The notes under the pieces are model-generated. The model saw nothing but the letters and a program-made list of their open reading frames with translations, ran no database searches and had not been told where the DNA came from. Position numbers and translations under genes: made by a program. Shown in pieces: positions 14,087 through 43,119 of a stretch of 64,000 nt of DNA (the first letter of the stretch is position 1; every line of letters starts with the position of its first letter). The stretch comes from a virus, in the IMG/VR virus record IMGVR_UViG_3300025154_000052, positions 73,578 to 137,577 of that record, one strand, 5' to 3'.

Positions 14087-14800
14087 ATGCAAGCACAACT
14101 GATAGCAGATGAAGCAACAATGGATTGCCAGCGGGCATTCGTGCAGTTGGTACAGGTGGTTCAGCAGCAGACCGGTGAGCCGATGCGCTTTTCCGTCGAG
14201 CGATTGGCCAGACTTTCGCTTGACAACGAACAGATCAACGAAGCGTTCTTGGTGCTCCGGCACTTCATGTACGTGAAAGGATGGACCGCCCAGGGGTTCT
14301 CCCAACGGTTCAAGAACGGTATCACCTTGGATGGCGTATCTGTCGCGCTCGTTCCTTACGCAGCCGACAGGGATAAGCGGTGGCGCGTCGTCGACACCGT
14401 CCCCGAAGTGACACGGTGTCCCGATGAGAAGCAGGATGTTCGTCACCTGCTCGATCGCATTGAGCAGGTGACGAACCAGTACGGGCGGGATGGCGCGGAC
14501 ATTGTCGAGTGGCTGAAGTTTGCACTGGACGATCGGCTCGACTTCAGAGCGTCAGTTGGTGTCCTGGAAAACGAATTGCAGAGCCTGTGGACAAGGGCGC
14601 AAGACCTCGGTCTGCCCGTCGAAAGTGATGCCGGGAAGGTCGTGGACCAGATCATCAGTGAGATCGGCAGACTGCAGAAGAGCGCCGGCGTCGTCCGGAA
14701 GATCCGCAACCTCGTTCTGGACGTCGAAAGCGACGAACGGCCGCGAAGTCTCGCCACGGATGTGATCTCCGACATGTCAGACTCAGAGTGCCGTGTCTGA
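14087..14800 (+). CDS. hypothetical protein
   Basis: AGGAG RBS, 237 aa, coiled-coil C-terminus. Confidence 0.75.
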   Translation: MQAQLIADEATMDCQRAFVQLVQVVQQQTGEPMRFSVERLARLSLDNEQINEAFLVLRHFMYVKGWTAQGFSQRFKNGITLDGVSVALVPYAADRDKRWRVVDTVPEVTRCPDEKQDVRHLLDRIEQVTNQYGRDGADIVEWLKFALDDRLDFRASVGVLENELQSLWTRAQDLGLPVESDAGKVVDQIISEIGRLQKSAGVVRKIRNLVLDVESDERPRSLATDVISDMSDSECRV

Positions 14801-14810
14801 TCTTTCCTCC

Positions 14811-14839
14811 TTGACCCGTTGCTTTCGCCTCGGTACAAT
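14811..14839 (+). promoter_or_regulatory. sigma70-like promoter
   Basis: TTGACC-N17-TACAAT. Confidence 0.7.
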
Positions 14840-14844
14840 CTCAC

Positions 14845-14946
14845 CCAGCGACACCAGAGTTGAACCGGGAGCCCTGAACCGGGGTCCCCTCCAAAGTTAA
14901 CTGGTGAAGCTATGCCCTTGGGTCGCGAGGCTCAGGGGCTTTTTTG
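14845..14946 (+). ncRNA. candidate ~100-nt small RNA
   Basis: ORF-free unit between a strong promoter and an intrinsic terminator. Confidence 0.5.
14914..14946 (+). terminator. intrinsic terminator
   Basis: GCCCTTGGGTC-GCGA-GGCTCAGGGGC followed by T6. Confidence 0.8.
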
Positions 14947-14963
14947 TTTACACCCCACGGAAA

Positions 14964-15006
14964 CATTAAAATGAGGATTGACTGATTCTCTAGCGTCGGC
15001 TATGAT
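14964..15006 (+). promoter_or_regulatory. promoter with upstream CATTAAAAT box
   Basis: CATTAAAATG-N4-TTGACT-N17-TATGAT. Confidence 0.7.
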
Positions 15007-15040
15007 CTCAGGTAGCTGTATAACACAGGGAGGACATAGC

Positions 15041-15337
15041 ATGCGTAAGAATTTCGTTCCCTCAGATTGCATTCACTACGAAGAGCCGGGGCAGATCGAG
15101 CGGTTGACCTACCGCGAAATCGACAACAGACGCCTATATCTGGAGCATCCCGCACGGATGACCCGGGCCGATATGCTGGCGGGCAAAGCCGCTGACTGGA
15201 CCGATGAGCGGGTGGATGCATACGCCGCCCAGTTCACCCTACCGGCGCCTTTCCGCATGCACTGCACGGTCCAGGGCCCGGCGAGCGCTGCGCCCAATGC
15301 CCCTATGATCGTCATCTGCGACATCCGGAGAAACTAA
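15041..15337 (+). CDS. hypothetical protein
   Basis: GGAGG RBS, start MRKNF. Confidence 0.7.
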   Translation: MRKNFVPSDCIHYEEPGQIERLTYREIDNRRLYLEHPARMTRADMLAGKAADWTDERVDAYAAQFTLPAPFRMHCTVQGPASAAPNAPMIVICDIRRN

Positions 15338-15339
15338 CC

Positions 15340-16530
15340 ATGCCACGGGTGGAGGGCTACTGTCATCGGTGCGGAACGTGGCTTCGTATGGAGAAGGTTC
15401 CCGACCGTCGCACTGCCGACTGGCGATCTGCGAACCGCACCTTCACCTGTGATCCGTGCAAGGAGTTCATCAGACGAGAGCGTACGCGGATGGCAGCCAA
15501 AATCAATGCCGCTCGAGGCCGCCCTCCACTGGTAGGAAGCCAGTCCCAAATTGACTGGGCCGAGACAATCCGGCTCGAGGTTCTTCAGAAGGTGGAGGAC
15601 GCCATCAATCGCATCTACATGGTGGACCCGGTGGCGAGTGCAGCAGACATATTCATGTGCCGCTCGCTTGGTGTGCAGGCGTGGGATCGGCTGCTGGTCG
15701 CCATCGAGGCGCTCGAGCAGCAGGACGATGCTCACTGGTGGATCGACAACCGAGAGTCCTTTCATGTCGGCATCATCGGTGAGATGGCTCGAGCCGTCCT
15801 GTCACCTGAGCAGGTGGAAGCCAAGGAGGCTCAAGAGGCGAACACCCAGGCCGCTATTGAGGATAGTACAATCGGTCCACCGATCGGTATCGCGCTTCAG
15901 TCTCCACTCCCCGTGGAGATTCGTGTTGGTTCGTCGATGGTGACCGCCCTTCTGCCTGACCGCCACGAGTCGTTCCGTGTACTGGTTCGGTCGCTCGGAT
16001 ACCGATGGAATCCAGACGTTCGTGTCTGGCAACGTCTAATCGATGATCGCAATGGTCCAAGCGATGACCGGGCCGTTGAACTTGCACATAGATTGCTGAC
16101 GGCAGGCTTTCGGGTTTGTATCCACGACTCGGTTCTGCGCCGACGAGTTGCCGCTGCCGAATTTATGCCTGAGCATACTCGGTGGATCATGCGCCGGGGC
16201 GAGGGCAAATATACCGGGTGGTTCGCCATCCAGTGGGCGCGTGGGGAGGATTACTACCAGCGCGCCAAGCGGCTGCCAGGCTCGAGATATGACAAGCCCT
16301 ACGTTGTTGTGCCTTCGTCGGCTTACGAGTCGGTGGCAGATTTCGCGGAGTTGTATGACTTCAGATTCTCGGCTGTTGCCAATCAACTCCTTGAGCAGGC
16401 CGAGAAGGCGGTCCAGGCTACTCGCCTAGAGAAACTGGCCAAACGACTCGAGAAGCCAAAGCCGAAGGACGGGCTGAGAGAGATCCTGTCCACAACATCC
16501 GGAATCCCAGCCGAGTTACTTGATGACTAA
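15340..16530 (+). CDS. hypothetical protein with N-terminal CxxC pairs and two HARP-like repeats
   Basis: CHRC/CDPC; LVGSQSQIDWAETIR; LGYRWNPDVRVWQ and AKRLPGSRYDK segments. Confidence 0.65.
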   Translation: MPRVEGYCHRCGTWLRMEKVPDRRTADWRSANRTFTCDPCKEFIRRERTRMAAKINAARGRPPLVGSQSQIDWAETIRLEVLQKVEDAINRIYMVDPVASAADIFMCRSLGVQAWDRLLVAIEALEQQDDAHWWIDNRESFHVGIIGEMARAVLSPEQVEAKEAQEANTQAAIEDSTIGPPIGIALQSPLPVEIRVGSSMVTALLPDRHESFRVLVRSLGYRWNPDVRVWQRLIDDRNGPSDDRAVELAHRLLTAGFRVCIHDSVLRRRVAAAEFMPEHTRWIMRRGEGKYTGWFAIQWARGEDYYQRAKRLPGSRYDKPYVVVPSSAYESVADFAELYDFRFSAVANQLLEQAEKAVQATRLEKLAKRLEKPKPKDGLREILSTTSGIPAELLDD

Positions 16531-17956
16531 GACTGATCTCCTACCATTTCAGATTCCTGCCGTGGAAAAGCTTCAGCCGTTGCGTGTTGGGGCGCTCTTT
16601 ATGGACATGGGGCTTGGCAAGAGCAGGGCCGCCATCGAACTCGTTGCGCGGCGGCAAGAGAAGATCAGTCGAGTCGTCTGGTTCTGTCCAGTCAGTCTGA
16701 AGGAGACGATTGAGTTTGAGATCCACAAGCATGTGGACACGGAGTCGCACCCGGTTTACGTCTTCGACGACAAGACACATCAGGGCGCAATCCCACGAGC
16801 GTTCTGGTACGTGATCGGGCTCGAGTCGATGGGTTCCAGCAGTCGAGTTATCCTGGCCGCTCGAGATCTGATGGACGAGAGCACATGTGTCATCGTGGAC
16901 GAGTCGGACTTCATCAAGGGCCACCGTTCGCAGCGGACCTGGTGGGTCACTGAGATCAGCAAAAACACTCGATATCGCCTCATCCTGAGTGGCACATCGG
17001 TTACCCAGGGTATCGTGGACCTTTACGCCCAGTTTCGCTTCCTATCCCCTCTCATCCTCGGGTATCGGTCATTCTACAGCTTTGCCGCGAATCATCTTGA
17101 GTACAGTGAGAAGTACCCGGGTTTGATCGTTCGGTCGCTCAACACCGGATACATCGCGGCGAAGATTGCGCCGTTCACCTATCAGGTGACGAAGGACGAA
17201 TGTCTGACCTTGCCCAAGAAATTGTACGAGACGAGATATTTCGGAATGACACCACAACAGGAGATGACGTATCAGCAGGCGAAGTATGAACTCCTGATGG
17301 ACGTGGACCCGGACGAGATGAACTCGTGGGTCATCTTCCGGCTGTTCACGGCGCTCCAGCAGATCGTCTGTGGCTTCTGGAATCGACGGCCACCGCGAGA
17401 GAACCGGCGCGACCGTCCCGAAATGGAGCACATCGATCTGCCACACTATCGTCTGGAGGTGCTTCAGGACGTGCTGGCGCGGATTCCAGGCGATGAGAAG
17501 GTGATCATCTGGGCCAAGTTCGACTACGACGTACAGGGGATTATGGGCGCCTTAAACGCTCACTACGGAGCAAGCCAGGTCTCTCTGTTCTGCGGTAAGA
17601 ACGCGGCGACACGAGATGAAGAACTCGAGCGCTTCCGTGGTCCTGCCCGGTTCCTCGTTGCTACCCCGTCCAGTGGCGGGCGCGGTCTTACAGTCAACGA
17701 TGCCCGATTCATGGTGTTCTACAACAACGGGTTCAAATACAGCGAGAGGAAGCAAGCCGCTGATCGCAACTACCGGATCGGGCAGGATATGCCGGTCACG
17801 ATTATCGACATCATCTGCAACGCTGGCATTGATCTCCGAATCATGGATGCACTGGCCACCAAACAAGGTGTGGTCCAGTCATTCCGACGTGAGGTCAAGA
17901 AACTTCGCGAGATGAAGGACGAAAAAAAATTCGCTGAGTTGGTCGCTTCGGTGTGA
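16520..17956 (+). CDS. SNF2-family (SF2) helicase/ATPase
   Basis: LFMDMGLGKS, IVDESDFIK, ILSGT, FTALQQI, GGRGLTV, QAADRNYRIGQ. Confidence 0.92.
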   Translation: MMTKTDLLPFQIPAVEKLQPLRVGALFMDMGLGKSRAAIELVARRQEKISRVVWFCPVSLKETIEFEIHKHVDTESHPVYVFDDKTHQGAIPRAFWYVIGLESMGSSSRVILAARDLMDESTCVIVDESDFIKGHRSQRTWWVTEISKNTRYRLILSGTSVTQGIVDLYAQFRFLSPLILGYRSFYSFAANHLEYSEKYPGLIVRSLNTGYIAAKIAPFTYQVTKDECLTLPKKLYETRYFGMTPQQEMTYQQAKYELLMDVDPDEMNSWVIFRLFTALQQIVCGFWNRRPPRENRRDRPEMEHIDLPHYRLEVLQDVLARIPGDEKVIIWAKFDYDVQGIMGALNAHYGASQVSLFCGKNAATRDEELERFRGPARFLVATPSSGGRGLTVNDARFMVFYNNGFKYSERKQAADRNYRIGQDMPVTIIDIICNAGIDLRIMDALATKQGVVQSFRREVKKLREMKDEKKFAELVASV

Positions 17957-17963
17957 TTTCCTG

Positions 17964-17992
17964 TTGACGCCGAATATACGTAAGCGTATATT
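17964..17992 (+). promoter_or_regulatory. promoter with overlapping palindromic operator
   Basis: TTGACG-N17-TATATT; AATATACG-taag-CGTATATT (17973-17992). Confidence 0.8.
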
Positions 17993-18024
17993 TAAGCCAT
18001 ACCACATCACATCGGAGATACATC

Positions 18025-18441
18025 ATGGCCACCCAGATTAAGATTGAGCGCTTCGAAGGTCGGTCCCCTCGGTTCTGGTCCTTGATGGGACCGGTCTTTG
18101 CAGGTCGTGCGTACCGGAAGGAGTTCCCCCATCTGCACGACGATGAGGGCTATATCTGGTTCCTCGGTCTGGATGGTGACAAGGTGGCCGGTGGAGGCGC
18201 CTGTCACATAGTCGGCACGACCGGTCACCTTCACGGGATCTTCGTCATGCAGCCGTATGCCGGTGCCGGGCTGTATAGTCGACTGGTGAGCGAGCGGATC
18301 GATTTCATGCGCTCCAAGGGCGTCAAGGTAATCCGGATCAAGGCGTTCGCCTCGAGTGTTCCGGTGCTCGAGGCGCTGGGGTTCAAGGCCACAGGGAAGT
18401 TTGGGACGGTGGTCCCGATGGAACTCAAACTGGAGGAATGA
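18025..18441 (+). CDS. GNAT-family acetyltransferase
   Basis: LHGIFVMQPYAGAGLYSRL...VLEALGFK. Confidence 0.8.
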   Translation: MATQIKIERFEGRSPRFWSLMGPVFAGRAYRKEFPHLHDDEGYIWFLGLDGDKVAGGGACHIVGTTGHLHGIFVMQPYAGAGLYSRLVSERIDFMRSKGVKVIRIKAFASSVPVLEALGFKATGKFGTVVPMELKLEE

Positions 18442-18606
18442 ATGATGTTGTCACAGGAACAGCATGCGGCCAGGTTCGCCTATGTCGCGAAGTATCCTCA
18501 CCTTAATTCTATCCGCGACTGGAGGACATTCTGTCTCAATGCCAGCAGGTTGAGTTGCGCGGGTATCCCGGTTCGTCACTTGTTGGTGATTACGAGAGAC
18601 TAGGCC

Positions 18607-18807
18607 ATGACGGTTCAAGAAGTTGCGGCACGACTCGGGACGTCGATCCGAGTCGTGCAGGACATGTGTAAACGCGGCGTGCTCGGTGCCGTTCCCCCTC
18701 GGGACTGGGATGTGTGCCCCTTGTGCCTCGAAGAGTATGTGCTGAGACCTCGGGGCAAGGGACGCCGGCAGCCGAAACAGGTATGCAGTCACAGGAAGGA
18801 AACGTGA
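18607..18807 (+). CDS. MerR/excisionase-type HTH protein
   Basis: MTVQEVAARLGTSIRVVQDMCKRGVLGA. Confidence 0.75.
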   Translation: MTVQEVAARLGTSIRVVQDMCKRGVLGAVPPRDWDVCPLCLEEYVLRPRGKGRRQPKQVCSHRKET

Positions 18808-18974
18808 TGAGAGAAAAAGGAGCATGGTACATCGAGACGTCGTCGGGGAGCATATATTACTACCACGTCAAGTTTGACGTGGCCGAACGGATGGCTCGTA
18901 AGATCGAGCGTGAGAGGGGTCTACCTGAGTTCTCCCTGATGGTCCGGTGGTACGATGACTGGCAGAGGTGAGGT

Positions 18975-19268
18975 ATGCGTTTTCTTGTTGTACGCGCAGT
19001 GGCCCTTCTGCCGGATAATCTTCGGTTGGAGATTGAGGAGACCATCGAAGCGATTGGTTTCCATGGGATCGTCGAGCAGGTTGACGGGGTCGACTTCGAT
19101 TACTCGACCATCCCAGGATTGGGCGATGGGTGCGTCATTCCGATTCCCGGCTTTCCGTTTGCGGATGCCGAGAACACTGAAGAGGCGATCACAGAGTACC
19201 GGCAGGGGCATAATGCCGGCGTGTTTGAGACCAGAGAGATGGCTGAGCGATTTACGAGGGATGAGTGA
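18975..19268 (+). CDS. hypothetical protein
   Basis: GAGGT RBS, acidic 97 aa. Confidence 0.65.
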   Translation: MRFLVVRAVALLPDNLRLEIEETIEAIGFHGIVEQVDGVDFDYSTIPGLGDGCVIPIPGFPFADAENTEEAITEYRQGHNAGVFETREMAERFTRDE

Positions 19269-19918
19269 TGTATTACAGATGCACGTTCCGCGACTGCACG
19301 CAGATCCTGATGTGTCGGGATCTGGAGGACCCGCAGACGATAGAGGATTACCGCAGGTTGATGCCGCCTCGGGTACGACTGGTATACTCGGACCCGCCGT
19401 GGAATCCCGGAAATGCCACCTACTGGCGCACGCATGCGCAGATGGCCCCTTGCCCGTCATACGACCGGTTTCTCGATGCATTCATCTCTGTGGTCGGGCT
19501 CGCGGTGGAGCGCGGCGCCTTTGACCTACTCATTGAGCAGTCGATCAATGAGGCGCACAGCGATTACCTGCTACGGGCGCTCGAGCGCAATGTGGTGCTC
19601 ATGCCTCTTCGTCGCAGATACGAGGTCATCTATTCGGGAAGACCGAATGCCCTGTTCCACTTCGGTATGCGTGACCTGCATACCGACCCGACCGGGATGT
19701 CGGAGGATGAGATGACTCTGCGCGCATGCGTAGGTGTATGGGCACCTGTCGGCTCGTGGGTCGTCGAACCATGCGTCGGCAAGGGCATGACAAGCCGGGC
19801 CGCTCACGCTCTCGGGTGGAATCTGATTGGCAGCGAGTTGGCCCAACACAGGCTCGATATCACGCTGAAATGGCTCGAGCGGCGTGGGTATCGTGTTGAG
19901 GAGCGGTATGATCCATGA
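19265..19918 (+). CDS. SAM-dependent amino-methyltransferase (beta-class motif order)
   Basis: LVYSDPPW precedes VVEPCVGKGMT and LIGSEL. Confidence 0.75.
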   Translation: MMYYRCTFRDCTQILMCRDLEDPQTIEDYRRLMPPRVRLVYSDPPWNPGNATYWRTHAQMAPCPSYDRFLDAFISVVGLAVERGAFDLLIEQSINEAHSDYLLRALERNVVLMPLRRRYEVIYSGRPNALFHFGMRDLHTDPTGMSEDEMTLRACVGVWAPVGSWVVEPCVGKGMTSRAAHALGWNLIGSELAQHRLDITLKWLERRGYRVEERYDP

Positions 19919-20258
19919 CGCTTGGATGGTCTTGATAAGGCGCGAGTATTTTTTGAGGTCCTTCGCCCGCAAGATCGCCCAAGTGGACATAGTTTTTGAG
20001 TTCAACGGGGGCCCGATAGGTGTTTACTGCCCACATGTGGATAAGTCTGGCTTTTTCCGCGTCGGTCCGATATGGGTTCATCCGGACTATCGCGGCAAGG
20101 GCTATTGCAGCGCCTTTGTCGCATCAGTGACGAAAGGTAAAAAGGCGCGCGCCCTGATCGAGGACACCAACGAGGCTTCTCAGCGGGCGTTCTCTGCCGC
20201 CGGATTCATACTCCAGGGAAGAGGGAATAGAATCAGTTCCTGGTGGGTGAAGCCGTGA
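19908..20258 (+). CDS. GNAT-family acetyltransferase
   Basis: VGPIWVHPDYRGKGY...NEASQRAFSAAGF. Confidence 0.85.
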   Translation: MIHDAWMVLIRREYFLRSFARKIAQVDIVFEFNGGPIGVYCPHVDKSGFFRVGPIWVHPDYRGKGYCSAFVASVTKGKKARALIEDTNEASQRAFSAAGFILQGRGNRISSWWVKP

Positions 20259-21121
20259 TCCACATCGGACTCGACACCGCCTCGAAATCTCGCGTGGTCG
20301 GGGAACTCTGCCAGCGCGAGGATATCAACCGCGTGGTTATCATCTCGACGATTGGCAGAGAGTTTCCCTGCGCTCACAGTCGCTACGAAGTGGTGACTTA
20401 TGAACAAGTCATCCAATACGCTTACTTCTATAGGCTTCTGCAGGAGATAGACAAACGGACGCTGGTTGTAGTCAACGAGTGCCTGCGGACGCAGAACCGG
20501 CACGACCTGACCTATAATTGCATCCGCCACTTTTTGAACCAGGCCGGGCATGTACTGGTGTTCCAATACCTACCGCTGATCGACACCGCAGAGGACTTCA
20601 GTATCCTCTTCGACTTTGACACTCAGAGCCGGTGGAAGCGGTCGAAGTTCGCGGACCTGCCGCTCGAGGAAGCACGGCTGGAGGTGGCACCTCGACGGCT
20701 CGAGTTCAGCAACACCGACGTCCGCGTGTCGCCCTCGTTCCGTGCCCGCTACCTGGCCGAGAAGGAGCGGCTGTTCGCCAACCTGGGTGCCAGTGACCCC
20801 CACACGCTACCACGCAACCTGCACCTGTTTACCGGCCGGCCCAAGTTGGGTGCTATGGATCCTTCGAGGCAGTACGTCTGTCGTAACGGGCGTTTCAACG
20901 AGCCCAGCCTGACCACCTATGAAAACGCCCAGCCCGGGCGGGAATACGCCATCTTCGAGTGGTGCCATCGATACATCGACTTCACCGACTTCCTTTGGAC
21001 GACGGGCCAGGACCGATTTGATGTACTCAGCACGGACCTGCCGGTAGATCAGTGGTATCTGCAACGGTATACGGATTGGAGGGATAAGTTGGATGCCTGC
21101 TATTCAGCGATACAGCGATAA
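20243..21121 (+). CDS. hypothetical protein, possibly a degenerate SF2 helicase fold
   Basis: LVVVNECLR in place of DExx; no Walker A visible. Confidence 0.6.
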   Translation: MGEAVIHIGLDTASKSRVVGELCQREDINRVVIISTIGREFPCAHSRYEVVTYEQVIQYAYFYRLLQEIDKRTLVVVNECLRTQNRHDLTYNCIRHFLNQAGHVLVFQYLPLIDTAEDFSILFDFDTQSRWKRSKFADLPLEEARLEVAPRRLEFSNTDVRVSPSFRARYLAEKERLFANLGASDPHTLPRNLHLFTGRPKLGAMDPSRQYVCRNGRFNEPSLTTYENAQPGREYAIFEWCHRYIDFTDFLWTTGQDRFDVLSTDLPVDQWYLQRYTDWRDKLDACYSAIQR

Positions 21122-22220
21122 GACGGTTTTGGAAGCTGCCAGGGAGCGCATCGCCTTTCTCTTCGATCACTACGAGACAATCCACGTTTCTATCAGTGGA
21201 GGGAAGGACTCGACGGTGCTTGCTCATCTGGCGCTGCTCGAGGCATATCGACGCGGGCGCAAGGTGGGCCTGTTCCTACTCGACGAGGAGGCCATGTACC
21301 AGAGTTCTGTGGACCAGGTCGAATACCTGATGAGCCTGTTCCCGGAGAACTGTAATCGCCTATGGCTTCAGGTGCCGTTCTACCTGACCAATGCCACCAG
21401 TTTGACAGAGAGCCAGTTACAGGCATGGGAGCCAGGCAAACACAAGATCTGGATGCGTTCCAAAGGGGAGGGGAATATTAAGGCTCCTCCATGGGCTGGG
21501 CCTCCTAAATTCCGAACAGGTTATTCCTGGCTGGATTTCTACGGCGTGATCGACAACTTCGAAGCCTGCTATGAGAACACAGTTTTTCTGGTCGGCCTAC
21601 GAGCTGCTGGCGAGTCCCCCAACCGGTGGCGCGCCGTCACCAAGAACCCGGTCACGGTGGCAGGTCAGGATGTCTACTGGGGCACTCAGAAGGGGCGAAA
21701 TATCGCCTTCTACCCCATCTACGACTGGAACTTCAGCGACGTGTGGAAGTACATTGCGATCAACGGATTGCGTTACTCCCGCGTCTATGACTGGCAGTTC
21801 AAGAAGGGATTCGGCATTTCAGAGATGCGCGTTTCGAGCCTCATTCACGAGCGCTCCTTCAAAAGTCTTGTAGAACTCCCGGAGTTTGAGCCGAAGACCT
21901 ACGACCGGCTGTGCAAACGCATCAAGGGCATCCAGTTCGCTCAGGAGACCGGCAAGAACGCCAAGATGATGAAGTGTCGGAAGTTGCCGAAGAACTTCAC
22001 ATCCTGGCGCGTTTACCGGAACTTCCTGCTTGAAACCTACCCGGTAGCCGACCACAAGCCGACCTTCGAGCGGCGTTTTGCCCGACAACTAGATAACGAG
22101 TACGTGGCCAGGCAGCAGTGCCGACAACTGGTACTCAACGACTACGAAAACAACCTTCATGTGGACAACAAGCCAGACCCACGTGAAGAGTTGATCGAAT
22201 ACTATCGGAGGGTGCTGTGA
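21093..22220 (+). CDS. PAPS-reductase-family PP-loop protein (IbrA-like) 1
   Basis: HVSISGGKDSTVL, LVGLRAAGESPNR, YPIYDW, MRVSSLIHE. Confidence 0.88.
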   Translation: MPAIQRYSDKTVLEAARERIAFLFDHYETIHVSISGGKDSTVLAHLALLEAYRRGRKVGLFLLDEEAMYQSSVDQVEYLMSLFPENCNRLWLQVPFYLTNATSLTESQLQAWEPGKHKIWMRSKGEGNIKAPPWAGPPKFRTGYSWLDFYGVIDNFEACYENTVFLVGLRAAGESPNRWRAVTKNPVTVAGQDVYWGTQKGRNIAFYPIYDWNFSDVWKYIAINGLRYSRVYDWQFKKGFGISEMRVSSLIHERSFKSLVELPEFEPKTYDRLCKRIKGIQFAQETGKNAKMMKCRKLPKNFTSWRVYRNFLLETYPVADHKPTFERRFARQLDNEYVARQQCRQLVLNDYENNLHVDNKPDPREELIEYYRRVL

Positions 22221-22723
22221 AGATTCTCTTCCCGTGTCTCAATACCTTCATGGTGCCACGTGTCCGCGTCGTGGCTAACAACTGGAATCCCAACCACGTG
22301 AGTTCGGACAAGATGCGGCTACTCATGCAGTCCATCATCGATAATGGTTGGTGTTTCCCTATTGTGACGGTTCATGATTCGGACGAAGACGTTTATCGTG
22401 TGGTCGATGGCTTCCACCGTTGGACGATTGCCGGCCCCGAATGGCTAGACTTGCCGGAGGTTCCGATCGTAGTCATCGCTGTGTCTGTTGCCCAGCGGAT
22501 GGCCGCGACAGTCCAATTCAACAAGGCACGTGGGGTCCACCAGGTAGATCTTGACGCCGACCTGATCCGGGCGCTCATCGAACAGGGCATGAGCGAGGAA
22601 GAGATCTCTTTGCATCTCAGTATCGAGATGGAAACCATCCACCGCTACAAGTCACTGACCGGAATAGCGGCTCTCTTTGCCAATGCCACATGGTCCACGG
22701 CATGGACCATGGAGGAGACGTGA
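22217..22723 (+). CDS. ParB/Srx-domain protein (IbrB-like) 1
   Basis: VVANNWNPN...PIVT...VVDGFHR...NKARGVH. Confidence 0.88.
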   Translation: MKILFPCLNTFMVPRVRVVANNWNPNHVSSDKMRLLMQSIIDNGWCFPIVTVHDSDEDVYRVVDGFHRWTIAGPEWLDLPEVPIVVIAVSVAQRMAATVQFNKARGVHQVDLDADLIRALIEQGMSEEEISLHLSIEMETIHRYKSLTGIAALFANATWSTAWTMEET

Positions 22724-23799
22724 TCCCGAATGGGTGCAAACTCTACCTACCCAAGAACGTTCTCGAGGCCGCTATTGAGCGTATAGCCTGGATATTCGAC
22801 CATTACGAGAACGTCTGTGTCTCCGTCTCGGGAGGAAAGGATAGTTCCGTGCTGGTCGAACTGGCACGGCGTGAGGCCGAGAGACGTGGACGGGTGATTC
22901 ACGTTTTCTTTCTCGACCAGGAAGTTGAGTACCGTTCCACGGTTGAAGTCATGCGGTACATCATGACTCGCCCGGCTGTAAAGGCACACTGGGTACAGGT
23001 CCCCATCCGAATGACGAACGCCACATCCTATGAGGACGAGTTCTTGTATGCCTGGGGACCGGGTGAGGAATGGGTCAGGCCGAAGGAGCCCGACTCCATC
23101 CATGAACTCCCGGATGCACCAGATCGATTCTACTCGTTCTTCGACTGGTGGGAAGCCCAGTGGCCTGAGAACACAGCGTGTCTTGTCGGTCTTCGGGCCG
23201 AAGAGAGTCTAAATCGGTTTGGCGCTGTGACCCGTCATCCTGCCATTCCAGGCATCAACTGGTCGTCTCCTGGCGGCGGGAAGAGCATTAAGTTCTACCC
23301 TCTCTACGACTGGACGTTCGAGGACATCTGGACGTTCATCGGCAACGAGGGACCGGTCTACAACCGCGTCTATGACTGGATGTGGGCCAAGGGGCGAAAC
23401 ATCGGAGATCTTCGGGTCTCCAACCTCATTCATGAGCGTGCGTTCAAGAGCCTGGCTGACCTTCAGGAGTTCGAGCCCGATACATACGATGCGCTCATTC
23501 GCAGGCTAAAGGGTGTGCACACAGCTGCTCTGTACAGTCGAGAGCAGATGGTGTTCAGCACGAAGAAACGGCCAGCGCAGTTCTCATCCTGGCGAGCGTA
23601 CCGAGACTTTTTACTCGAGACGCTTCCGAACGAGAGACGACAACAATTTCTCGAGCGGTTCGGAAATCAACTCCAGAGCGAATCCGTGTTCCGGCAGCAG
23701 GTCCGCCAGCTCCTGCTGAACGATTGGGAGAACAACATCCCGGTGGTCCAGCAGCCGGATCGGCCGAACCCATTACTGAAGTGGATGGACATCCTATGA
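22720..23799 (+). CDS. PAPS-reductase-family PP-loop protein (IbrA-like) 2
   Basis: CVSVSGGKDSSVL, LVGLRAEESLNR, YPLYDW, LRVSNLIHE; GGAGG RBS with GTG start. Confidence 0.88.
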   Translation: MIPNGCKLYLPKNVLEAAIERIAWIFDHYENVCVSVSGGKDSSVLVELARREAERRGRVIHVFFLDQEVEYRSTVEVMRYIMTRPAVKAHWVQVPIRMTNATSYEDEFLYAWGPGEEWVRPKEPDSIHELPDAPDRFYSFFDWWEAQWPENTACLVGLRAEESLNRFGAVTRHPAIPGINWSSPGGGKSIKFYPLYDWTFEDIWTFIGNEGPVYNRVYDWMWAKGRNIGDLRVSNLIHERAFKSLADLQEFEPDTYDALIRRLKGVHTAALYSREQMVFSTKKRPAQFSSWRAYRDFLLETLPNERRQQFLERFGNQLQSESVFRQQVRQLLLNDWENNIPVVQQPDRPNPLLKWMDIL

Positions 23800-24356
23800 G
23801 CCAGATCACATTCCCTTGTTGCCATGTGCAGATGGTTACTGCTGTTAAGGTGGTATCCAACGACTACAACCCTAACAACGTGGCAACGCCAGAGATGGAC
23901 CTGCTTGCCCTCTCCATCGAAGAGGATGGAGTTACTCAGCCCATCGTTGTTGTTTATGATCCGGTCCTGGATCTGTATGTGGTGGTGGATGGCTTCCACC
24001 GGTACACCATCCTGACAAAGAGGTTCAAGTGTCCAGAGATCCCGGTGGTGGTGATCGACAAGTCCATCAATGACCGCATGGCCTCCACCATTCGGCATAA
24101 TCGAGCTCGTGGCAAGCACAAGGTAGACATGATGTCTGTCCTTGTCGAGAAGCTTCTCAAACTCGGCTGGAGCGACACCGACATCGCGAAGCAGTTGGGG
24201 ATGGAGGCAGAGGAGGTGCTTCGGCTCAAGCAGATGACCGGGTTGGCGGGCCTGTTCAAGGGCCAGGGTTACAGCCGATCATGGACACGCCCGGAAGGGG
24301 CGCCGCTATTCCAGGACGAGCCCACCAATGATGACGACCGGGAAGACTCCGAGTAG
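23796..24356 (+). CDS. ParB/Srx-domain protein (IbrB-like) 2
   Basis: VVSNDYNPNNVA...TQPIVV...VVDGFHR...RHNRARGKH. Confidence 0.9.
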   Translation: MSQITFPCCHVQMVTAVKVVSNDYNPNNVATPEMDLLALSIEEDGVTQPIVVVYDPVLDLYVVVDGFHRYTILTKRFKCPEIPVVVIDKSINDRMASTIRHNRARGKHKVDMMSVLVEKLLKLGWSDTDIAKQLGMEAEEVLRLKQMTGLAGLFKGQGYSRSWTRPEGAPLFQDEPTNDDDREDSE

Positions 24357-24366
24357 TCCAGCGATA

Positions 24367-24409
24367 CATTAAAATACCTGTTGATTAGTACGTCGATCAC
24401 CTATATACT
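24367..24409 (+). promoter_or_regulatory. promoter with CATTAAAATA box
   Basis: CATTAAAATA-N4-TTGATT-N17-TATACT. Confidence 0.75.
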
Positions 24410-24414
24410 GAGTC

Positions 24415-25074
24415 ATGGCTACTGTGGAGGCTGTGACGAGTATGCATGTCCTGACTACCCCCAATTACCCACCCGGCTATGTCGCGATAGACAACCCTGG
24501 CGACATAGCCGTCCTTGACCTCGAACATTGCTCCATCAAAGACCCCGTCACCCTTGTCATTATGAAGGACTGGAGACCGCGCGCCCAGTACTGCACTCAA
24601 TTAGAGTACGGCTGGACGGCTCGACTATCACAGCCTCGAGGGCCGGGTAACGAGAGGACCCCTACCTATTTTGAGATTTATGCCGAGCGTGACGACTTCG
24701 ACCGTACACAGGCATGCTGGACGCTCACAGGTTTGACCATCCAACAGGCTATCCATGAGATTCAGGAGATGGCGCCCATCGTTAAAGACTGGTTCGATCA
24801 ACGGGAAGGCGTGAACGCTGCACAGTCGCTCGAGGACCTGTTGACGCTCATCAAGGAGAACCATCCATCTACACGCCTTCCCAGTGGTGGTCGCAGGGTG
24901 CGCTGGCCCAAGTTCGGAGGACCAGTCATTCCACATCCGTGGGTAATCTCATGGGATGAAGAGCGCGCACTGGTGTGTAATTTCGATTACGCCGACATCG
25001 TGACCAGGGGCGATGTCGAAGACATGTGGCAGGAGTGGAAACGTGGTGAACCGTCACGATGCCCCAAAGACTGA
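24415..25074 (+). CDS. hypothetical protein
   Basis: 219 aa directly after a promoter. Confidence 0.7.
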   Translation: MATVEAVTSMHVLTTPNYPPGYVAIDNPGDIAVLDLEHCSIKDPVTLVIMKDWRPRAQYCTQLEYGWTARLSQPRGPGNERTPTYFEIYAERDDFDRTQACWTLTGLTIQQAIHEIQEMAPIVKDWFDQREGVNAAQSLEDLLTLIKENHPSTRLPSGGRRVRWPKFGGPVIPHPWVISWDEERALVCNFDYADIVTRGDVEDMWQEWKRGEPSRCPKD

Positions 25075-25321
25075 GGCTGAGCTACTTCAGAAGCGTGAAC
25101 GGGTAGCCCGACAAGTCAGGGCTGTCTTTCGCGGTGAACCTGTCCGGTGTGGGTGTGGCTGGGTCCCTCCTACTCTATCCATCTATCGGTGCTACTACTG
25201 CGCCGAGTGGTACTGCGAGCGGTGCGCCCCCGATCACTTCGGGGGCAAGCGTGAAGCGATTGCGAGCGTCACTCAAAGTGGAGGACATCATGAGACTCGG
25301 AACGAAGCATGTGGAGATTGA
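25013..25321 (+). CDS. small Zn-finger protein
   Basis: CGC...CYYCAEWYCERCAPDH; start uncertain. Confidence 0.5.
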   Translation: MSKTCGRSGNVVNRHDAPKTEAELLQKRERVARQVRAVFRGEPVRCGCGWVPPTLSIYRCYYCAEWYCERCAPDHFGGKREAIASVTQSGGHHETRNEACGD

Positions 25322-25519
25322 GCCAGGTGTCTCGCCGCGTCAGCGTGGTGCAAGTTGGCCCGTGATGGACGGCAGCAACCTCATTGGCACGGTCAGGCGT
25401 GAACGTCATCGCCAGCAGGGATATCAAGCGGTCGTCACAGTCTGTGGGCAAGAAATTCATGTGAGCGGTCACCGTCGTAAGGATGTCTTGTCTCGTCTTC
25501 GTCGCCGTGTGGCGAGTCT

Positions 25520-26101
25520 TTGAGTGAGGAGTATTGGCATGAAGGTGTTAGCCAAGAAGGAGTGGGCTTCTCATCTACGAGTGGTCCGCCTGTCGATGGA
25601 GTGGAAGTTGGAGGACTTTTGGGTCGGTGCATCCTGGCGACGTCAGCCAGGGCATCTTCAAGTCTGGGCCTGTTTGGTTCCGTGCCTCCCGATTCATCTC
25701 AGTTGGACGCGGCTGTAATCGAAGACCCCAGGATCATGAGGCATGCAGTGAAGACCGTTCTTGACCAGTGGCTCGAGCGTGTGAAGCGCAATGCAGAACC
25801 GTTCATCTCGGCAGAAGAGCAGGGACAGATCCTGCGGTGTATTGATGACCTTGACGACGCCTGTACGCCTCGACCGCCACAACCGGAGTGGTTCGGTACG
25901 GGTCCGGGGCAGTGGGATTCGTGGACAATACTTGGACTAGGCCAGCCTGGCAAGTGGCGACCCATTCAAAGGTCGAAGCACTGGCAATACTACGTCGAGT
26001 TGATGTTGGTGACGGGCGGGTGCCTCGTTGTCCCTGTTCGTCGTCCGCCCGATCCGCCTGCGATGGATGTTGGGTGGGGAGTTATAGATGGGAGTAAATA
26101 G
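25520..26101 (+). CDS. hypothetical protein
   Basis: Start uncertain (possibly ~25737). Confidence 0.5.
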   Translation: MSEEYWHEGVSQEGVGFSSTSGPPVDGVEVGGLLGRCILATSARASSSLGLFGSVPPDSSQLDAAVIEDPRIMRHAVKTVLDQWLERVKRNAEPFISAEEQGQILRCIDDLDDACTPRPPQPEWFGTGPGQWDSWTILGLGQPGKWRPIQRSKHWQYYVELMLVTGGCLVVPVRRPPDPPAMDVGWGVIDGSK

Positions 26102-26103
26102 AA

Positions 26104-26733
26104 ATGATGTATCTCGATGATTTCACTGACGGTATTGATGTGCTGGCAAAGGCGTGTGAGCGTGCAGGCATTTCAGACCCCGGATATGGTCCGGATGGAG
26201 TGGAGTGTGACCCTGACTTGACGCCAGAAGAGATGACACTTTTACGGCGATGCGGATGGATCAGAATCCAACTCAATGGGCGAGTGCTTTGGACAACCCA
26301 TATGCAGATCGACCATGAGAAAACCACGCTGGCCGGCATTCCCAACAGCGAGTTGGGCACAAAGGTTTTATCCTGGTATCGCAGTGGTGATCACGGCATC
26401 TCCTCTGAGTATCTGGCTGCCACTGCACTGGACGATACGGCGTGGGTTGCGAGACTTCGCCTGAGTGCGCCATGGCCTCACGATGCCAGCGACTTCGGGC
26501 GATGTTATCGACTGGTGGAGCAGATTCCAAAAGTAAAGGAACTCGCTTTTGCCAGACTGGCCGATCATCCGGTGTGGGGCAAGCTCGTCGCCGCGTGGGA
26601 CGATCTTTCTGCACAATACCTGAAGGCGTTGCAGGAGAGTAAGGACCAGGAAAGCCTTCTAAAAGGGCAGCGGCGCTATCCGATCTCCACACGCCTTCAC
26701 AACCGTATCAAGAGGTGTGGTCATCATCAATAG
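26104..26733 (+). CDS. conserved phage hypothetical protein
   Basis: W..SGDHGISS...PHDASDFGRCYRL motif. Confidence 0.7.
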   Translation: MMYLDDFTDGIDVLAKACERAGISDPGYGPDGVECDPDLTPEEMTLLRRCGWIRIQLNGRVLWTTHMQIDHEKTTLAGIPNSELGTKVLSWYRSGDHGISSEYLAATALDDTAWVARLRLSAPWPHDASDFGRCYRLVEQIPKVKELAFARLADHPVWGKLVAAWDDLSAQYLKALQESKDQESLLKGQRRYPISTRLHNRIKRCGHHQ

Positions 26734-27155
26734 GTCTATGCACGCCACATGAAGGGAGGCAACAATTGAAGGGTGACAGGCTGTTCAAATGGTTCGGTAA
26801 CTACATCGTTGCGCCGTCGATTGACGCGGCGTGGCAGGGCCTTCAGGAACAATTCGTCGATGAACCTGATGTGAAAGGCGGGTTCCATTCGATGGAGGAA
26901 GTCGCTGAACACTACTACACTGATCGTCAGGATCTCTGGCCATTGTATCAGAGTGTCAACGCTCGAGAGTATCTGGCTGCCGTCGATCCGTGCGAGTATG
27001 TGGAACTGGTGGAATATGAACTTCCGTCGTCGCATGTGCGCGTGTCGGGCACCGTTACTGAAGGATTGGAACCTCCAGTGTTTCTGGCCCGCGCCGAGGC
27101 TCGTGTGTGGGCTGAACTGCTTCCCACCGGGTTCATCTACAAGGCTGACTATTGA
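26715..27155 (+). CDS. hypothetical protein
   Basis: GGAGG RBS near 26755; start probably TTG at ~26766. Confidence 0.6.
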   Translation: MWSSSIGLCTPHEGRQQLKGDRLFKWFGNYIVAPSIDAAWQGLQEQFVDEPDVKGGFHSMEEVAEHYYTDRQDLWPLYQSVNAREYLAAVDPCEYVELVEYELPSSHVRVSGTVTEGLEPPVFLARAEARVWAELLPTGFIYKADY

Positions 27156-27296
27156 TGGATATGCAAGCGATTGTGGACGAGTTGCAGCGGGTGCTGGCGC
27201 TACTTGTGTCGATAGAGATGATCGCAGGTGACGGCAGGATGTCACCCGACTGGCGGCTGATCAGGATAGCGGACTTGGCGCGGAAGGTGGTGAGGG

Positions 27297-28244
27297 ATGA
27301 GGTTTTACCTGGGGACTCATCAGACGGGATGGCTGTTCGACCAACGACTGATTGGTGTTCCCTTGTTCGTCAGCCGGAGAACACTGAATCCGTTGCGACT
27401 TTCTAAATTAAAAGGCCCACAAGCACCTGACTCCCGAGTCATCCGTATTGATATGCGCCTCGACGCATCGGGGCGATGGGTTCCCGTTGCAGTAGATGGG
27501 GACGGGTGCGTCTTGCCGGTCAAAAGTCGCAAGCCGTGGCGGCGTGCTGTCACTCGCTGGGCGCTGGACTCTGGTGGATTTCAGGAACTTGATCTGCACG
27601 GTAAATGGACGGTACCCGCTCGACAGTACGTGGAAGAAGTCCGGATCTGTGCAGAGGAGATTGGCGGTCTTGACTGGGCTGCTATTCAGGACTGGATGTG
27701 TGAGCCTCGAATCAGAGAGAAGACAGGTCTGTCCACGGAAGAACACCAGAAGCGGACGATTGCATCGTACCTTGAACTTTCCTCCATGGCACCAGATCTG
27801 CCGTGGGCACCGGTCATCCAAGGGTGGTCCCTCTGGTCGTATTTCCGACATCTTGAGATGTACGACAAGGCTGGAATCGATCTGAGGAAGTTCAAAGTGG
27901 TGGGTGTGGGAAGTGTTTGCCGGCGCCAGGGAACGTATGAAGCAGCCGGGATTATGGAGTCCCTTGCTCGAGAAGGCATACGTCTTCACGGCTTCGGCTT
28001 CAAGCAACTGGGCTTGAAGATGGCAGCGGCTTCTATGACTAGTGCCGACAGTCTGGCGTGGTCGTTCGAAGCTCGACGGGCAGCTATCGCCAACGGACAG
28101 GCGTTTACTCATCGGCTGTGCCATGACCCAATAGCCACTCATCAGAACTGCGCGAATTGTCTTGAGTGGGCGCTGATGTGGCGGCGGTATGTGCTGGATT
28201 CAATTGAGCATGGTGAGAGCCAGGTTCAGATGGGGCTGTTCTAA
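27297..28244 (+). CDS. TGT/DpdA-like transglycosylase (queuine tRNA-ribosyltransferase-like)
   Basis: ALDSGGF, AIQDWMCEP, PVIQGW, VGVGSVCRR, LHGFGFK, SADSLAWS. Confidence 0.75.
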   Translation: MRFYLGTHQTGWLFDQRLIGVPLFVSRRTLNPLRLSKLKGPQAPDSRVIRIDMRLDASGRWVPVAVDGDGCVLPVKSRKPWRRAVTRWALDSGGFQELDLHGKWTVPARQYVEEVRICAEEIGGLDWAAIQDWMCEPRIREKTGLSTEEHQKRTIASYLELSSMAPDLPWAPVIQGWSLWSYFRHLEMYDKAGIDLRKFKVVGVGSVCRRQGTYEAAGIMESLAREGIRLHGFGFKQLGLKMAAASMTSADSLAWSFEARRAAIANGQAFTHRLCHDPIATHQNCANCLEWALMWRRYVLDSIEHGESQVQMGLF

Positions 28245-29314: not shown

Positions 29315-29316
29315 AC

Positions 29317-29799: not shown

Positions 29800-29840
29800 G
29801 ATACCTCCGTTTACCCACCGTCAGGTGGGTGTCTAGTGTG

Positions 29841-42720: not shown

Positions 42721-42728
42721 GGTGACTC

Positions 42729-43109: not shown

Positions 43110-43119
43110 GAGGTGACTC

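Follow-up and report, generated by a model that had tools for sequence, protein, structure and literature searches.

Two adjacent IbrA–IbrB cassettes in a groundwater phage operon, a possible ATP-dependent and DNA-directed modification machine

Known pairs of ParB-like and PP-loop proteins

IbrA and IbrB of E. coli prophages, and their K-12 paralogues YbdN and YbdM, are encoded as a two-gene unit in which a protein with PAPS_reduct and DUF3440 domains is accompanied by a ParB-like partner; phages carry the same Pfam and PHROG families (phrog_2302 and phrog_2159), e.g., Flavobacterium phage FCL-2. In DndB–DndC (and SspD), likewise, a ParB-superfamily protein is paired with a PP-loop ATP pyrophosphatase of the PAPS-reductase family that acts at DNA, and bacterial Dpd joins a ParB-like ATPase (DpdB) and SNF2-type helicases to a DNA-modifying enzyme, the transglycosylase DpdA. 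Subtype IV-B (Csf1-Cas11-Csf2-Csf3; e.g., on the Mycobacterium sp. JS623 plasmid) includes a CysH-like protein, CasCysH, which is, like IbrA, a cysteine-less PP-loop protein of the PAPS-reductase family. Fusions of a ParB fold with an N6_N4 methyltransferase are frequent in phages (10.1101/2025.10.10.680097).

In a groundwater phage known from a short-read metagenome, the IbrAB unit occurs twice, as A1–B1 and A2–B2, in an operon of 13 closely spaced plus-strand genes downstream of a promoter-like site, the last of which ends at position 24356 of the window, i.e., the whole stretch of 64,000 nt that was analysed (Table 1). By sequence comparison, a methyltransferase-like gene (MT-like), a gene termed X292, A1 and B1 constitute cassette 1, and A2–B2 is a separate cassette 2. 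The latter is an ordinary IbrAB member, with 43% and 54% identity to gp09 and gp08 of FCL-2, which likewise adjoin an SNF2-like gene; A1–B1 differs from known IbrAB in forming a separate clade and in being accompanied by X292 and the MT-like gene. Unlike DndB–DndC or SspD, the operon comes without the cysteine dyad, desulfurase and DndD/DndE, and has an MT-like enzyme and SNF2-type proteins instead. Unlike in bacterial Dpd, the DpdA nearby is not co-conserved with the cassette, and DpdC is absent. The commonest gene order in related loci, B followed by MT, has the look of a split form of the phage fusions (e.g., phrog_498, the ParB part of which is matched by both B1 and B2); however, the halves are here separate genes, the MT half, at 216 aa, is very small, and IbrA and X292 always stand alongside.

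Table 1. Positions, in the window, of the operon genes and neighbouring features
Feature	Position	Strand	Remarks
396-aa protein, upstream of SNF2	15340–16530	+	phrog_16123, unknown function
SNF2-family ATPase	16520–17956	+	SNF2-rel_dom E 5.5e-14; Helicase_C E 1.9e-9; phrog_62 E 8e-89
Sigma-70-like promoter, TTGACG-17-TATATT	17964–17992	+	10/12 positions match
GNAT1, acetyltransferase-fold protein	18025–18441	+	Acetyltransf_1 E 1.6e-10
53-aa ORF	18442–18603	+	public gene calls
HTH, 66 aa	18607–18807	+	HTH_17 E 9.9e-6, 26.2 bits vs cut-off 27
54-aa ORF	18807–18971	+	public gene calls
97-aa ORF	18975–19268	+	public gene calls
MT-like, member of cassette 1	19268–19918	+	DPPW, then CVGKG motif I
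GNAT2, accessory acetyltransferase-fold protein	~19908–20258	+	domain match
X292, cassette-1 signature gene	20255–21121	+	AlphaFold2 pLDDT 89.6; 658 homologues
A1, IbrA-like PP-loop ATP pyrophosphatase, cassette 1	21093–22220	+	PAPS_reduct + DUF3440
B1, IbrB-like	22217–22723	+	ParB_N, phrog_2159; DGFHR, then HTH-like stretch
A2, IbrA-like PP-loop enzyme, FCL-2 phage type, cassette 2	22720–23799	+	PAPS_reduct + DUF3440
B2, IbrB-like partner of A2, cassette 2	23796–24356	+	ParB_N, phrog_2159
DpdA	27297–28244	+	PF23859 E 1e-68; 3 kb downstream of operon

Operon layout and the two IbrAB subfamilies

The layout described in an earlier note on this DNA, a promoter-like site with a palindrome followed by packed plus-strand genes up to 24356, is confirmed. 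The site is one of three promoter-like matches within 14500–30000. A perfect 8+4+8 palindrome, AATATACG-TAAG-CGTATATT (17973–17992), which occurs once in the 137.6-kb record, is located in its spacer and across the -10 element and is a candidate operator, at which the HTH protein might act in the autoregulation supposed in the earlier note. Perfect inverted repeats with 8-bp arms and loops of 0–8 nt number 29 in the window versus about 10.5 in shuffled sequences; a palindrome of such size is not rare in itself, and its position is the sole suggestive feature. The upstream genes are separated by gaps of at most 3 nt and neighbouring genes from MT-like to B2 overlap by 4–29 nt, with 4 nt at three junctions, given the starts of the public gene calls, which correct earlier starts for A2 and B2 (to 22720 and 23796, respectively). 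The operon is surrounded by DNA-metabolism genes (Dda-like helicase, SNF2, DpdA).

GNAT1 (searched with tblastn), the HTH gene and the small ORFs have no counterparts in ~120 related loci, and the four small ORFs of 18442–19268, HTH included, are lineage-specific on this comparison. GNAT2 is found in 7 of 54 cassette-1 loci, plus two A2-type loci.

All domain calls of the earlier note were upheld, by Pfam and PHROG matches or, for X292, by a structure model, and SGGKDS is indeed present in both PP-loop copies and VVDGFHR in both ParB copies. The view of the two pairs as duplicates was not borne out. Both A1 and A2 match phrog_2302 (E 5e-80 and 5e-92), with identities of 49% between A1 and A2 and 44% between B1 and B2, and the pairs are located in different clades of the IbrA tree; judged from their sequences, they are two adjacent subfamilies and not a recent tandem duplication. 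Relatives of A1 (more than 120 clusters at 66–75% identity) occur on X292-bearing contigs, while IbrA of the A2 clade has homologues in 223 deposited phages, none of which has two IbrA genes.

A structure model of the A1–B1 complex scored 0.76, with 0.05 for the best of three controls; 58 of 80 solved complexes attain this mark, as do 2 of 110 mismatched pairs, a rough calibration only, in which own alignments were used. At least 67% of the contacts agree between runs, and partner pLDDT is at least 67. The interface involves B1 residues 149–168 and A1 residues 1–15 and 211–242, and binding between A1 and B1 is thus predicted, with a conserved C-terminal peptide of B1 docked on A1.

The analogy with DndC/SspD drawn in the earlier note fails on the chemistry. 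Phosphorothioation of the Dnd/Ssp kind, with IbrA as DndC/SspD and IbrB as DndB, could be suggested by the resemblance of the ParB-like plus PAPS-reductase-like pairing to DndB–DndC and by weak matches of A1 and A2 to DndC (PADLOC, NCBIfam; E 1e-5 to 1e-6), which are far under the family cut-off (22 versus 290 bits). However, sulfur carriage by DndC needs a cysteine dyad (PMC10853773), and IbrA does not provide it: A1 and A2 share no invariant cysteine, and among 54 family members no cysteine reaches 90% conservation. No cysteine desulfurase was found in the record (87% complete), nor any DndD/DndE-type ABC ATPase gene in the operon. Since IbrA is without a conserved cysteine and the phage without a desulfurase, we regard this reading as very improbable indeed.

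MT-like is best described as a minimal beta-class N6/N4-type methyltransferase-like protein (216 aa): it scores only 19.8 bits against Pfam N6_N4_Mtase (cut-off 26.7), and D-P-P and CxGxG are kept at 90% or more across its family. X292 matched nothing in Pfam and PHROG searches. Its model matches the SNF2-family ATPase cores of INO80, ISWI and Chd1 (Foldseek E ~2e-8), therefore the “helicase-like” label of the earlier note is correct, and as modelled it is a compact SNF2-fold protein of two RecA-like lobes. The Walker A motif GxGK[ST] was absent in a motif check that included the family alignment, so X292 may not hydrolyse ATP. Its homologues (44–54% identity) are on the same contigs as the A1 relatives; it had no match among deposited phages or plasmids, and only 8 of 185,579 species genomes carry it, the cassette being almost confined to viruses.

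Conservation and alternating partners of cassette 1

The earlier note had proposed a single co-conserved pathway, and had named absence of co-conservation beforehand as what would refute it; in the synteny survey, only MT, X292, A1 and B1 travel together. The survey covered 54 distinct metagenomic cassette-1 loci with flanks of 10 kb; 51 of them have the long IbrA, 51 have B and 50 have MT.

The partner next to cassette 1 is SNF2 only in 26 of these loci and Csf only in 23; none has both within these flanks, and five have neither (Fisher p 9e-11, uncorrected for kinship), though the alternation should not be taken as absolute. Mapped on the IbrA tree, partner type switches 9–10 times, at least 3–5 of these switches being forced by well-supported branches. 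The Csf proteins are type IV Cas8, Cas11, Cas7 and Cas5 (E 1e-23 to 1e-78) and form IV-B sets without an array; 20 of the 23 Csf loci include a CysH-like short PP-loop gene. Among the SNF2 loci a short PP-loop ORF was seen in L074 only, where it is an IbrA cut at the contig end. Unlike the IV-B loci, the present record is without any Csf gene and has, instead, the SNF2 ATPase after the 396-aa protein. The MT-X292-IbrA-IbrB cassette is not described in the type IV-B literature examined.

SNF2-type loci often have the 396-aa protein as well, as here at 15340–17956, and its homologues precede SNF2 in numerous other loci of this kind (L055, L069, L071 and others). This recurrent partner, SNF2 often with the 396-aa protein, lies outside the region delimited in the earlier note. 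The 396-aa protein had no match in a Pfam search, and its closest ESM Atlas clusters consist of hypothetical proteins from viruses; a HARP-like identity was not confirmed. SNF2 adjoins A2-type pairs too (L001, i.e., phage FCL-2, L004, L006–L010 and L055).

The linkage data also bear on the role of DpdA, which follows the operon at a distance of 3 kb in the same orientation. The cassettes might serve a phage 7-deazaguanine system as accessory steps, in decoration of the DpdA base or in its insertion, with IbrB in the place of DpdB, the ParB-like ATPase with which bacterial DpdA works; the record is, moreover, without QueC. We consider this very unlikely: no DpdA homologue occurs within 10 kb of the cassette in ~120 related loci, and here the operon and DpdA have five unrelated genes and another promoter-like site (24381–24409) between them.

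A tentative mechanism

The identities of the domains, the packing of the operon, the conservation of the cassette, the alternation of its partners and the in-silico A1–B1 interface were computed here; the substrate, chemistry, step order and biological role set out below are what we infer for the IbrAB cassettes. Our tentative reading, which we hold with somewhat less than even confidence, is that the operon comprises two independent IbrA–IbrB cassettes forming an ATP-dependent, DNA-directed modification machine. The general idea of the earlier note, a DNA-directed multi-enzyme system using ATP, SAM and acyl groups, is thereby retained, without its single co-conserved pathway.

Cassette 1 (MT-like, optional GNAT2, X292, A1, B1) would work with the upstream SNF2 ATPase, and probably with its 396-aa neighbour; cassette 2 would be A2–B2, of the IbrAB type found in the deposited phages. 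IbrB would bind DNA with its HTH and its ParB-type, NTP-binding N-domain, and its conserved C-terminal peptide would hold IbrA. The nearest structures to the A1 N-terminal domain are CysH, the PAPS domain of FAD synthase and CysD, and the PP-loop together with this CysD/FMN-adenylyltransferase-like fold points to adenylylation: IbrA may, in a sulfur-free, ATP-driven reaction, adenylylate a nucleic-acid group, readying it for substitution or joining. The DPPW enzyme would then add a SAM-derived group and, in some lineages, GNAT an acyl group, with X292 as a scaffold gripping the DNA. The target would be exposed by the SNF2 motor or, in other phages, by the array-less type IV-B Csf complex with the CysH-like enzyme. 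The likely product would be a covalent mark on phage DNA, shielding it from host nucleases. Several points count against this reading: MT-like is below the Pfam cut-off and has no recognisable target-recognition domain, X292 is without Walker A, and the PP-loop enzymes characterised so far have, for the most part, tRNA or small molecules as substrates. The cassette substrate could be RNA.

In a system for counter-defence or host takeover, phage DNA would stay unmarked and the targets would be the nucleic acids, RNA or nucleotide pools of the host, with, e.g., adenylylation or depletion of a host molecule or modification of host tRNA or crRNA. PP-loop enzymes being often tRNA-acting, this alternative is in keeping with the fold neighbours TtuA and LarE of A1; for B2, the scores against ParB are matched by those against the ParB-fold kinases SerK and SbnI, and the rarity of X292 in species genomes and the near restriction of the cassette to viruses fit as well. 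The Csf complex of type IV-B binds RNAs other than those of CRISPR, and AMPylation of targets or production of signals has been suggested for CasCysH. However, the MT-like enzyme, the SNF2 motor, X292 and a ParB-HTH protein are typical dsDNA-handling parts, and we think this alternative unlikely.

Genetics of E. coli IbrA/IbrB reportedly describe activators of eib gene expression, not modification enzymes, and the pairs could, without any DNA modification, be DNA-bound regulators of phage gene expression or replication timing, with IbrB as an NTP-gated DNA clamp or a repressor/activator like ParB, KorB or DndB, and IbrA as its nucleotide-handling cofactor. In B1 (read by eye) and B2, the ParB N-domain is followed by an HTH-like stretch, and some phage homologues are labelled “co-activator of prophage gene expression” in RefSeq. 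The E. coli ybdNM genes are a regulated operon of unknown role (PMC9068703). On the other hand, pure regulation hardly explains why an MT-like enzyme, a protein of SNF2 fold and either a motor or a Csf complex should be so strictly linked to the pair; ~100 IbrA positions besides the PP-loop SGGKDS are conserved at 90% or more, which is enzyme-like, and in some phages the IbrAB pair lies between the terminase and portal genes. We also judge this improbable.

The position of cassette 1 beside either an SNF2 motor or a guide-less type IV-B complex provides a testable clue to the functions of both.

Composition and setting of the operon

The promoter with its palindrome, the gene list and the protein domains proved to be present as claimed in the earlier note (profile matches, ORFs and public gene calls), and SGGKDS in both IbrA-like copies and VVDGFHR in both IbrB-like copies were confirmed. 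Downstream of the promoter-like site come GNAT1, a 53-aa ORF, an HTH_17 protein, a 54-aa ORF and a 97-aa ORF, followed by the DPPW methyltransferase-like gene (MT-like), GNAT2, a 288-292-aa ORF (X292) and the IbrA-like/IbrB-like genes twice (A1-B1 and A2-B2). The public gene calls are concordant and place the start of A2 at 22720 and that of B2 at 23796; with these starts, neighbouring genes from MT-like through B2 share 4 to 29 nt, 4 nt at three of the junctions.

Coordinates of the features discussed (window positions, except where the whole record or a numbered locus is named)
Feature	Position	Strand	Evidence or remark
Dda-like helicase	12773-14059		
Promoter-like TTGACC-17-TACAAT with hairpin (14914-14939 + T run)	14811-14939	+	10/12 positions
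396-aa protein	15340-16530		
SNF2 ATPase	16520-17956		
Promoter-like TTGACG-17-TATATT	17964-17992	+	10/12 positions
Perfect palindrome AATATACG-TAAG-CGTATATT	17973-17992		
HTH_17 protein, 66 aa	18607-18807	+	E 9.9e-6, slightly below cut-off
MT-like	19268-19918	+	
X292	20255-21121	+	
A1 (IbrA-like)	21093-22220	+	PF01507 E 9.6e-10; PF11922 E 3.1e-9; phrog_2302 E 5e-80
B1 (IbrB-like)	22217-22723	+	phrog_2159 E 2.8e-43; Pfam ParB_N 24.2 bits (cut-off 26.3)
A2 (IbrA-like)	22720-23799	+	PF01507 E 8e-15; PF11922 E 6e-13; phrog_2302 E 5e-92
B2 (IbrB-like)	23796-24356	+	phrog_2159 E 3.2e-63; Pfam ParB_N 26.8 bits (cut-off 26.3)
Promoter-like TTGATT-17-TATACT	24381-24409	+	9/12 positions
Next gene	24442-25074		
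DpdA-family DNA transglycosylase	27297-28244	+	PF23859 E 1e-68; 3 kb downstream of operon
Third SNF2 candidate	record 42153-44051	-	own SNF2 HMM
Second SNF2-family ATPase, 560 aa	record 58510-60192 (L068:2511-4193)	+	SNF2-rel_dom E 1.7e-19
Mom-family protein	record 63010-63816 (L068:7011-7817)	-	PF25680 E 1.9e-22
PP2C phosphatase	L068:8394-9209		
Third PAPS-reductase-family gene (506 aa) with its neighbour	record 66038-68666 (L068:10039-12667)	-	PF01507 E 2.3e-8
Short PP-loop-like ORF fragment	record 69827-70177		
X292-IbrA-IbrB unit, twice in tandem	L111:8663-13507; L113:8669-13486		metagenomic phages
Cas6-like gene	L067:8514-9398		also in L083, L084 and L123

Including the promoter-like site of the operon, 15.5 kb of sequence contain three such matches. 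The palindrome occupies the spacer of this site, overlaps the -10 element and occurs a single time in the whole record, so that no operator family can be defined. Perfect inverted repeats with 8-bp arms and loops of 0-8 number 29 in the window versus about 10.5 in shuffles; the size of the palindrome alone is not rare, and it is solely its position that argues for a candidate operator. Directly past the B2 stop, a further promoter-like site precedes the next gene, which suggests that the operon ends at 24356; no terminator was predicted there. Another promoter-like sequence, at 14811, is followed about 100 nt on by a strong terminator-like hairpin, with no ORF between the two.

A 137.6-kb IMG/VR virus record, which CheckV rates as 87% complete, ends with the 64 kb of the window; the surroundings of the operon are phage DNA-metabolism genes. 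Groundwater metagenome assemblies contain the identical sequence, and it is present in four sequencing runs from the source groundwater study, all of DNA; no RNA data set is listed for it. Among deposited phages, BLASTN with the 6.5-kb region recovered only two short, weak matches. Upstream of the window (in part numbered as locus L068), the record encodes a second, different SNF2-family ATPase, a third SNF2 candidate, a short PP-loop-like ORF fragment and a third PAPS-reductase-family gene; the latter adjoins a protein that weakly matches radical-SAM and has a PP2C phosphatase nearby. A Mom-family protein is also encoded there, and the phage therefore has three or more distinct candidate systems of DNA modification: Mom-like, DpdA and the IbrAB cassettes. 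Searches of Pfam, PHROGs and Atlas left the HARP identity of the 396-aa protein unconfirmed.

Two cassettes joined in one operon

We compared all operon proteins by TBLASTN with phage FCL-2 and the 60 IMG/VR loci that A2 had retrieved. Each of these loci has one IbrA and one IbrB, always nearer to A2/B2 than to A1/B1. A1 is not a degenerate copy: over 120 database clusters match it at 66-75% identity. From the gene maps of three contigs with A1 and X292 relatives and iterated HMM searches over further loci, we assembled 54 distinct loci; a single X292 sequence as the query found no related loci, and an alignment of homologues was needed. A long IbrA and an IbrB are each present in 51 of these 54, MT-like in 50 and GNAT2 in seven. 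Because they co-occur in these loci, X292, long IbrA, IbrB and MT-like form a defined cassette (cassette 1), while A2-B2 make up cassette 2.

In a quick IbrA tree, the cassette-1 clade (51 rows; SH-aLRT 100) stands apart from the A2/FCL-2 clade, where A2 groups with the IbrA of locus L004 (support 99), and B1 and B2 are split in the same way. The two pairs are therefore members of distinct subfamilies joined in one operon and not the product of duplication; a recent tandem A-B duplication was rejected on the same tree. Thus, what the earlier note had called duplicated pairs are two different cassettes from separate clades. Neither does a single co-conserved pathway hold: the synteny survey shows a composite operon, with GNAT1, the HTH protein and the small ORFs having homologues in no related locus. 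A DNA-directed multi-enzyme system, the other part of that interpretation, is plausible.

None of the 223 deposited phages with an IbrA homologue has two IbrA genes. In two metagenomic phages (L111 and L113), the X292-IbrA-IbrB unit occurs twice in tandem after one SNF2 gene and the second IbrA copy sits on its own branch, a layout that parallels the two cassettes of the window.

SNF2 ATPase or type IV-B Csf proteins beside cassette 1

The neighbour of cassette 1 is an SNF2 ATPase in 26 of the 54 loci, often with a 396-aa-protein homologue ahead of it, as in the window, and a set of type IV Cas8/Csf1, Cas11, Cas7/Csf2 and Cas5/Csf3 genes in 23 (identified with PADLOC, E 1e-23 to 1e-78, and our own HMMs). 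No locus has both partners and five have neither, several of the latter being short contigs (Fisher p 9e-11, uncorrected for kinship). The partner label switches 9-10 times on the IbrA tree, where well-supported branches force at least 3-5 switches. Within the cassette-1 subfamily, there is a strong, though not absolute, tendency towards an either/or rule; the nearest relative of A1 (75% identity) occurs in a Csf/CysH-like context.

A short CysH-like PAPS-reductase gene lies beside 20 of the 23 Csf sets, and no CRISPR-like arrays occur within 10 kb of the Csf loci; these cassette-linked, array-less sets are subtype IV-B-like. Some of them include a Cas6-like gene, which is unusual for subtype IV-B with no array within 10 kb. 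A paper of September 2026 (PMC13676074) still called the function of type IV-B CRISPR-Cas unclear, and the only accessory gene that we found described in the type IV-B literature is the CysH-like one.

In the record under study, csf1, cas11, csf2 and csf3 are absent throughout (TBLASTN with the Csf proteins of loci L064, L066 and L067; iterated HMMs). Beside the cassette in the window, there is no PAPS_reduct gene of 240-310 aa, and the 359-aa A2 occupies the slot after B1. We rejected A2 as a long form of the CysH-like gene, since it groups with IbrA of the FCL-2 type and is paired with a B2 of its own.

Since one conserved four-gene cassette adjoins either partner, the pattern suggests that SNF2 and the IV-B Csf/CysH-like set do the same job for it, which is probably that of giving access to DNA. 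The real unit reaches upstream to the SNF2 genes, past the region delimited in the earlier note.

Candidate activities and proposed mechanism

A1 and A2 have the PP-loop followed by DUF3440, as the IbrA family requires. The N-terminal domain is closest to CysH, the PAPS-reductase-like domain of FAD synthase and CysD, all of them enzymes that split ATP at the alpha-phosphate and use the AMP or pass it on. An action on host RNA or nucleotides is an alternative that we deem unlikely. Like DndC and SspD, A1 and A2 are PP-loop ATP pyrophosphatases of the PAPS-reductase family, but they differ from DndC, which requires a sulfur-carrying cysteine dyad (PMC10853773), in that no cysteine column is common to the two. 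The IbrA family keeps the PP-loop and some 100 other positions but no cysteine: among 54 members, none is conserved at 90% or more, the best reaching 80%. Moreover, the 137.6-kb record has no PF00266 match that could indicate a cysteine desulfurase (DndA/SspA), although host IscS could serve, and the TIGR03183 score is 22.1 bits versus a curated cut-off of 290.4. For these reasons, phosphorothioation of the Dnd/Ssp type is very unlikely, and the analogy drawn in the earlier note fails the test that defines it.

B1 and B2 are co-oriented with their own A genes, which they overlap by 4 nt, and this adjacency is kept in related loci. IbrB consists of a ParB N-domain with DGFHR (at least 90% conserved across 52 members; in an alignment of 32 sequences, D, G, H and R do not vary) and an HTH-like stretch. 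It scores alike against ParB/Noc and the ParB-fold kinases SerK and SbnI; a regulatory role for the system is a reading to which we give a low probability. The predicted A1-B1 complex scored 0.76 versus 0.05 for the best of three controls, a mark that 58 of 80 solved complexes and two of 110 mismatched pairs attain; these counts apply roughly, since our own alignments were used. Contacts agreed by at least 67% between model runs, with a partner pLDDT of at least 67. In this predicted complex, a conserved C-terminal peptide of B1 (residues 149-168) sits on residues 1-15 and 211-242 of A1. B2 ends in a similar peptide and, judging from this likeness, cross-pairing between the two A/B pairs may be possible.

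X292 has no Pfam or PHROG match, including none to Pfam SNF2/helicase families. Its AlphaFold2 model (pLDDT 89.6) has two RecA-like lobes and resembles the SNF2-family ATPase cores of INO80, ISWI and Chd1 (E about 2e-8); the best 40+ Foldseek matches are all SNF2 cores (E 2e-8 to 4e-6; query-normalised TM at most 0.66). The family lacks Walker A GxGK[ST] and the DExH box; in its consensus, the P-loop position reads LGLDxxxK and motif II reads NEC. Its 658 homologues (44-54% identity) occur on the same contigs as A1 relatives; TBLASTN matched neither PLSDB plasmids nor the deposited phages of INPHARED, and just eight of 185,579 species genomes, over several phyla, carry X292. Fused, longer forms were not found, which is weak evidence.

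MT-like (216 aa) has DPPW at residues 43-46 and EPCVGKG at 168-174, that is, motif IV and motif I in beta-class order, and D-P-P and CxGxG are at least 90% conserved among 50 family members. It scores 19.8 bits against Pfam N6_N4_Mtase (cut-off 26.7), the alignment being confined to the C-terminal 50 residues. MT-like and IbrB together look like the two halves of the ParB-N6_N4 methyltransferase fusions that are frequent in phages, encoded as separate genes.

The Dpd system differs in that its co-occurrence of a ParB-like gene with dpdA is absent. DpdA, although present near the operon here, lies within 10 kb in none of the related loci and is not co-conserved with IbrAB cassettes; a functional link to it is very unlikely. 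QueC is absent from the 87%-complete record and any 7-deazaguanine precursor would therefore come from the host.

Together, the parts would form a DNA-bound machine, in which IbrB would anchor IbrA on DNA, IbrA would activate a group using ATP, MT-like, sometimes also a GNAT, would transfer a group, X292 would grip the DNA, and SNF2 or the Csf complex would give access to the duplex. We consider it slightly short of an even chance that the outcome is a covalent, non-sulfur modification of the phage's own DNA, the chemistry being a proposal. Bolder and rather doubtful is a model in which MT-X292-IbrA-IbrB would supply the enzymatic effector that phage-borne type IV-B CRISPR-Cas lacks. For this cassette, SNF2, often with its 396-aa partner, would be a guide-free, interchangeable means of delivery; the cassette would write an undescribed ATP-dependent, non-sulfur covalent DNA mark, and this phage would have two writers (A1-B1 and A2-B2) with different specificities.

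Pairs of the IbrA/IbrB type are found in hundreds of phages and also, as YbdN/YbdM, in E. coli K-12; our literature searches yielded no functional study of IbrA/IbrB, DUF3440 or a PAPS reductase with ParB. The value of the window is that a cassette found elsewhere next to type IV-B CRISPR-Cas occurs here with a motor and free of Csf, side by side with an ordinary phage IbrAB pair that can serve as a comparison. Simple constructs can be made from this Csf-free phage, with the motor included or left out. Should the product prove to be a new DNA mark, phage anti-restriction would gain a new chemistry, and the system might become a tool for modifying DNA at chosen sites.
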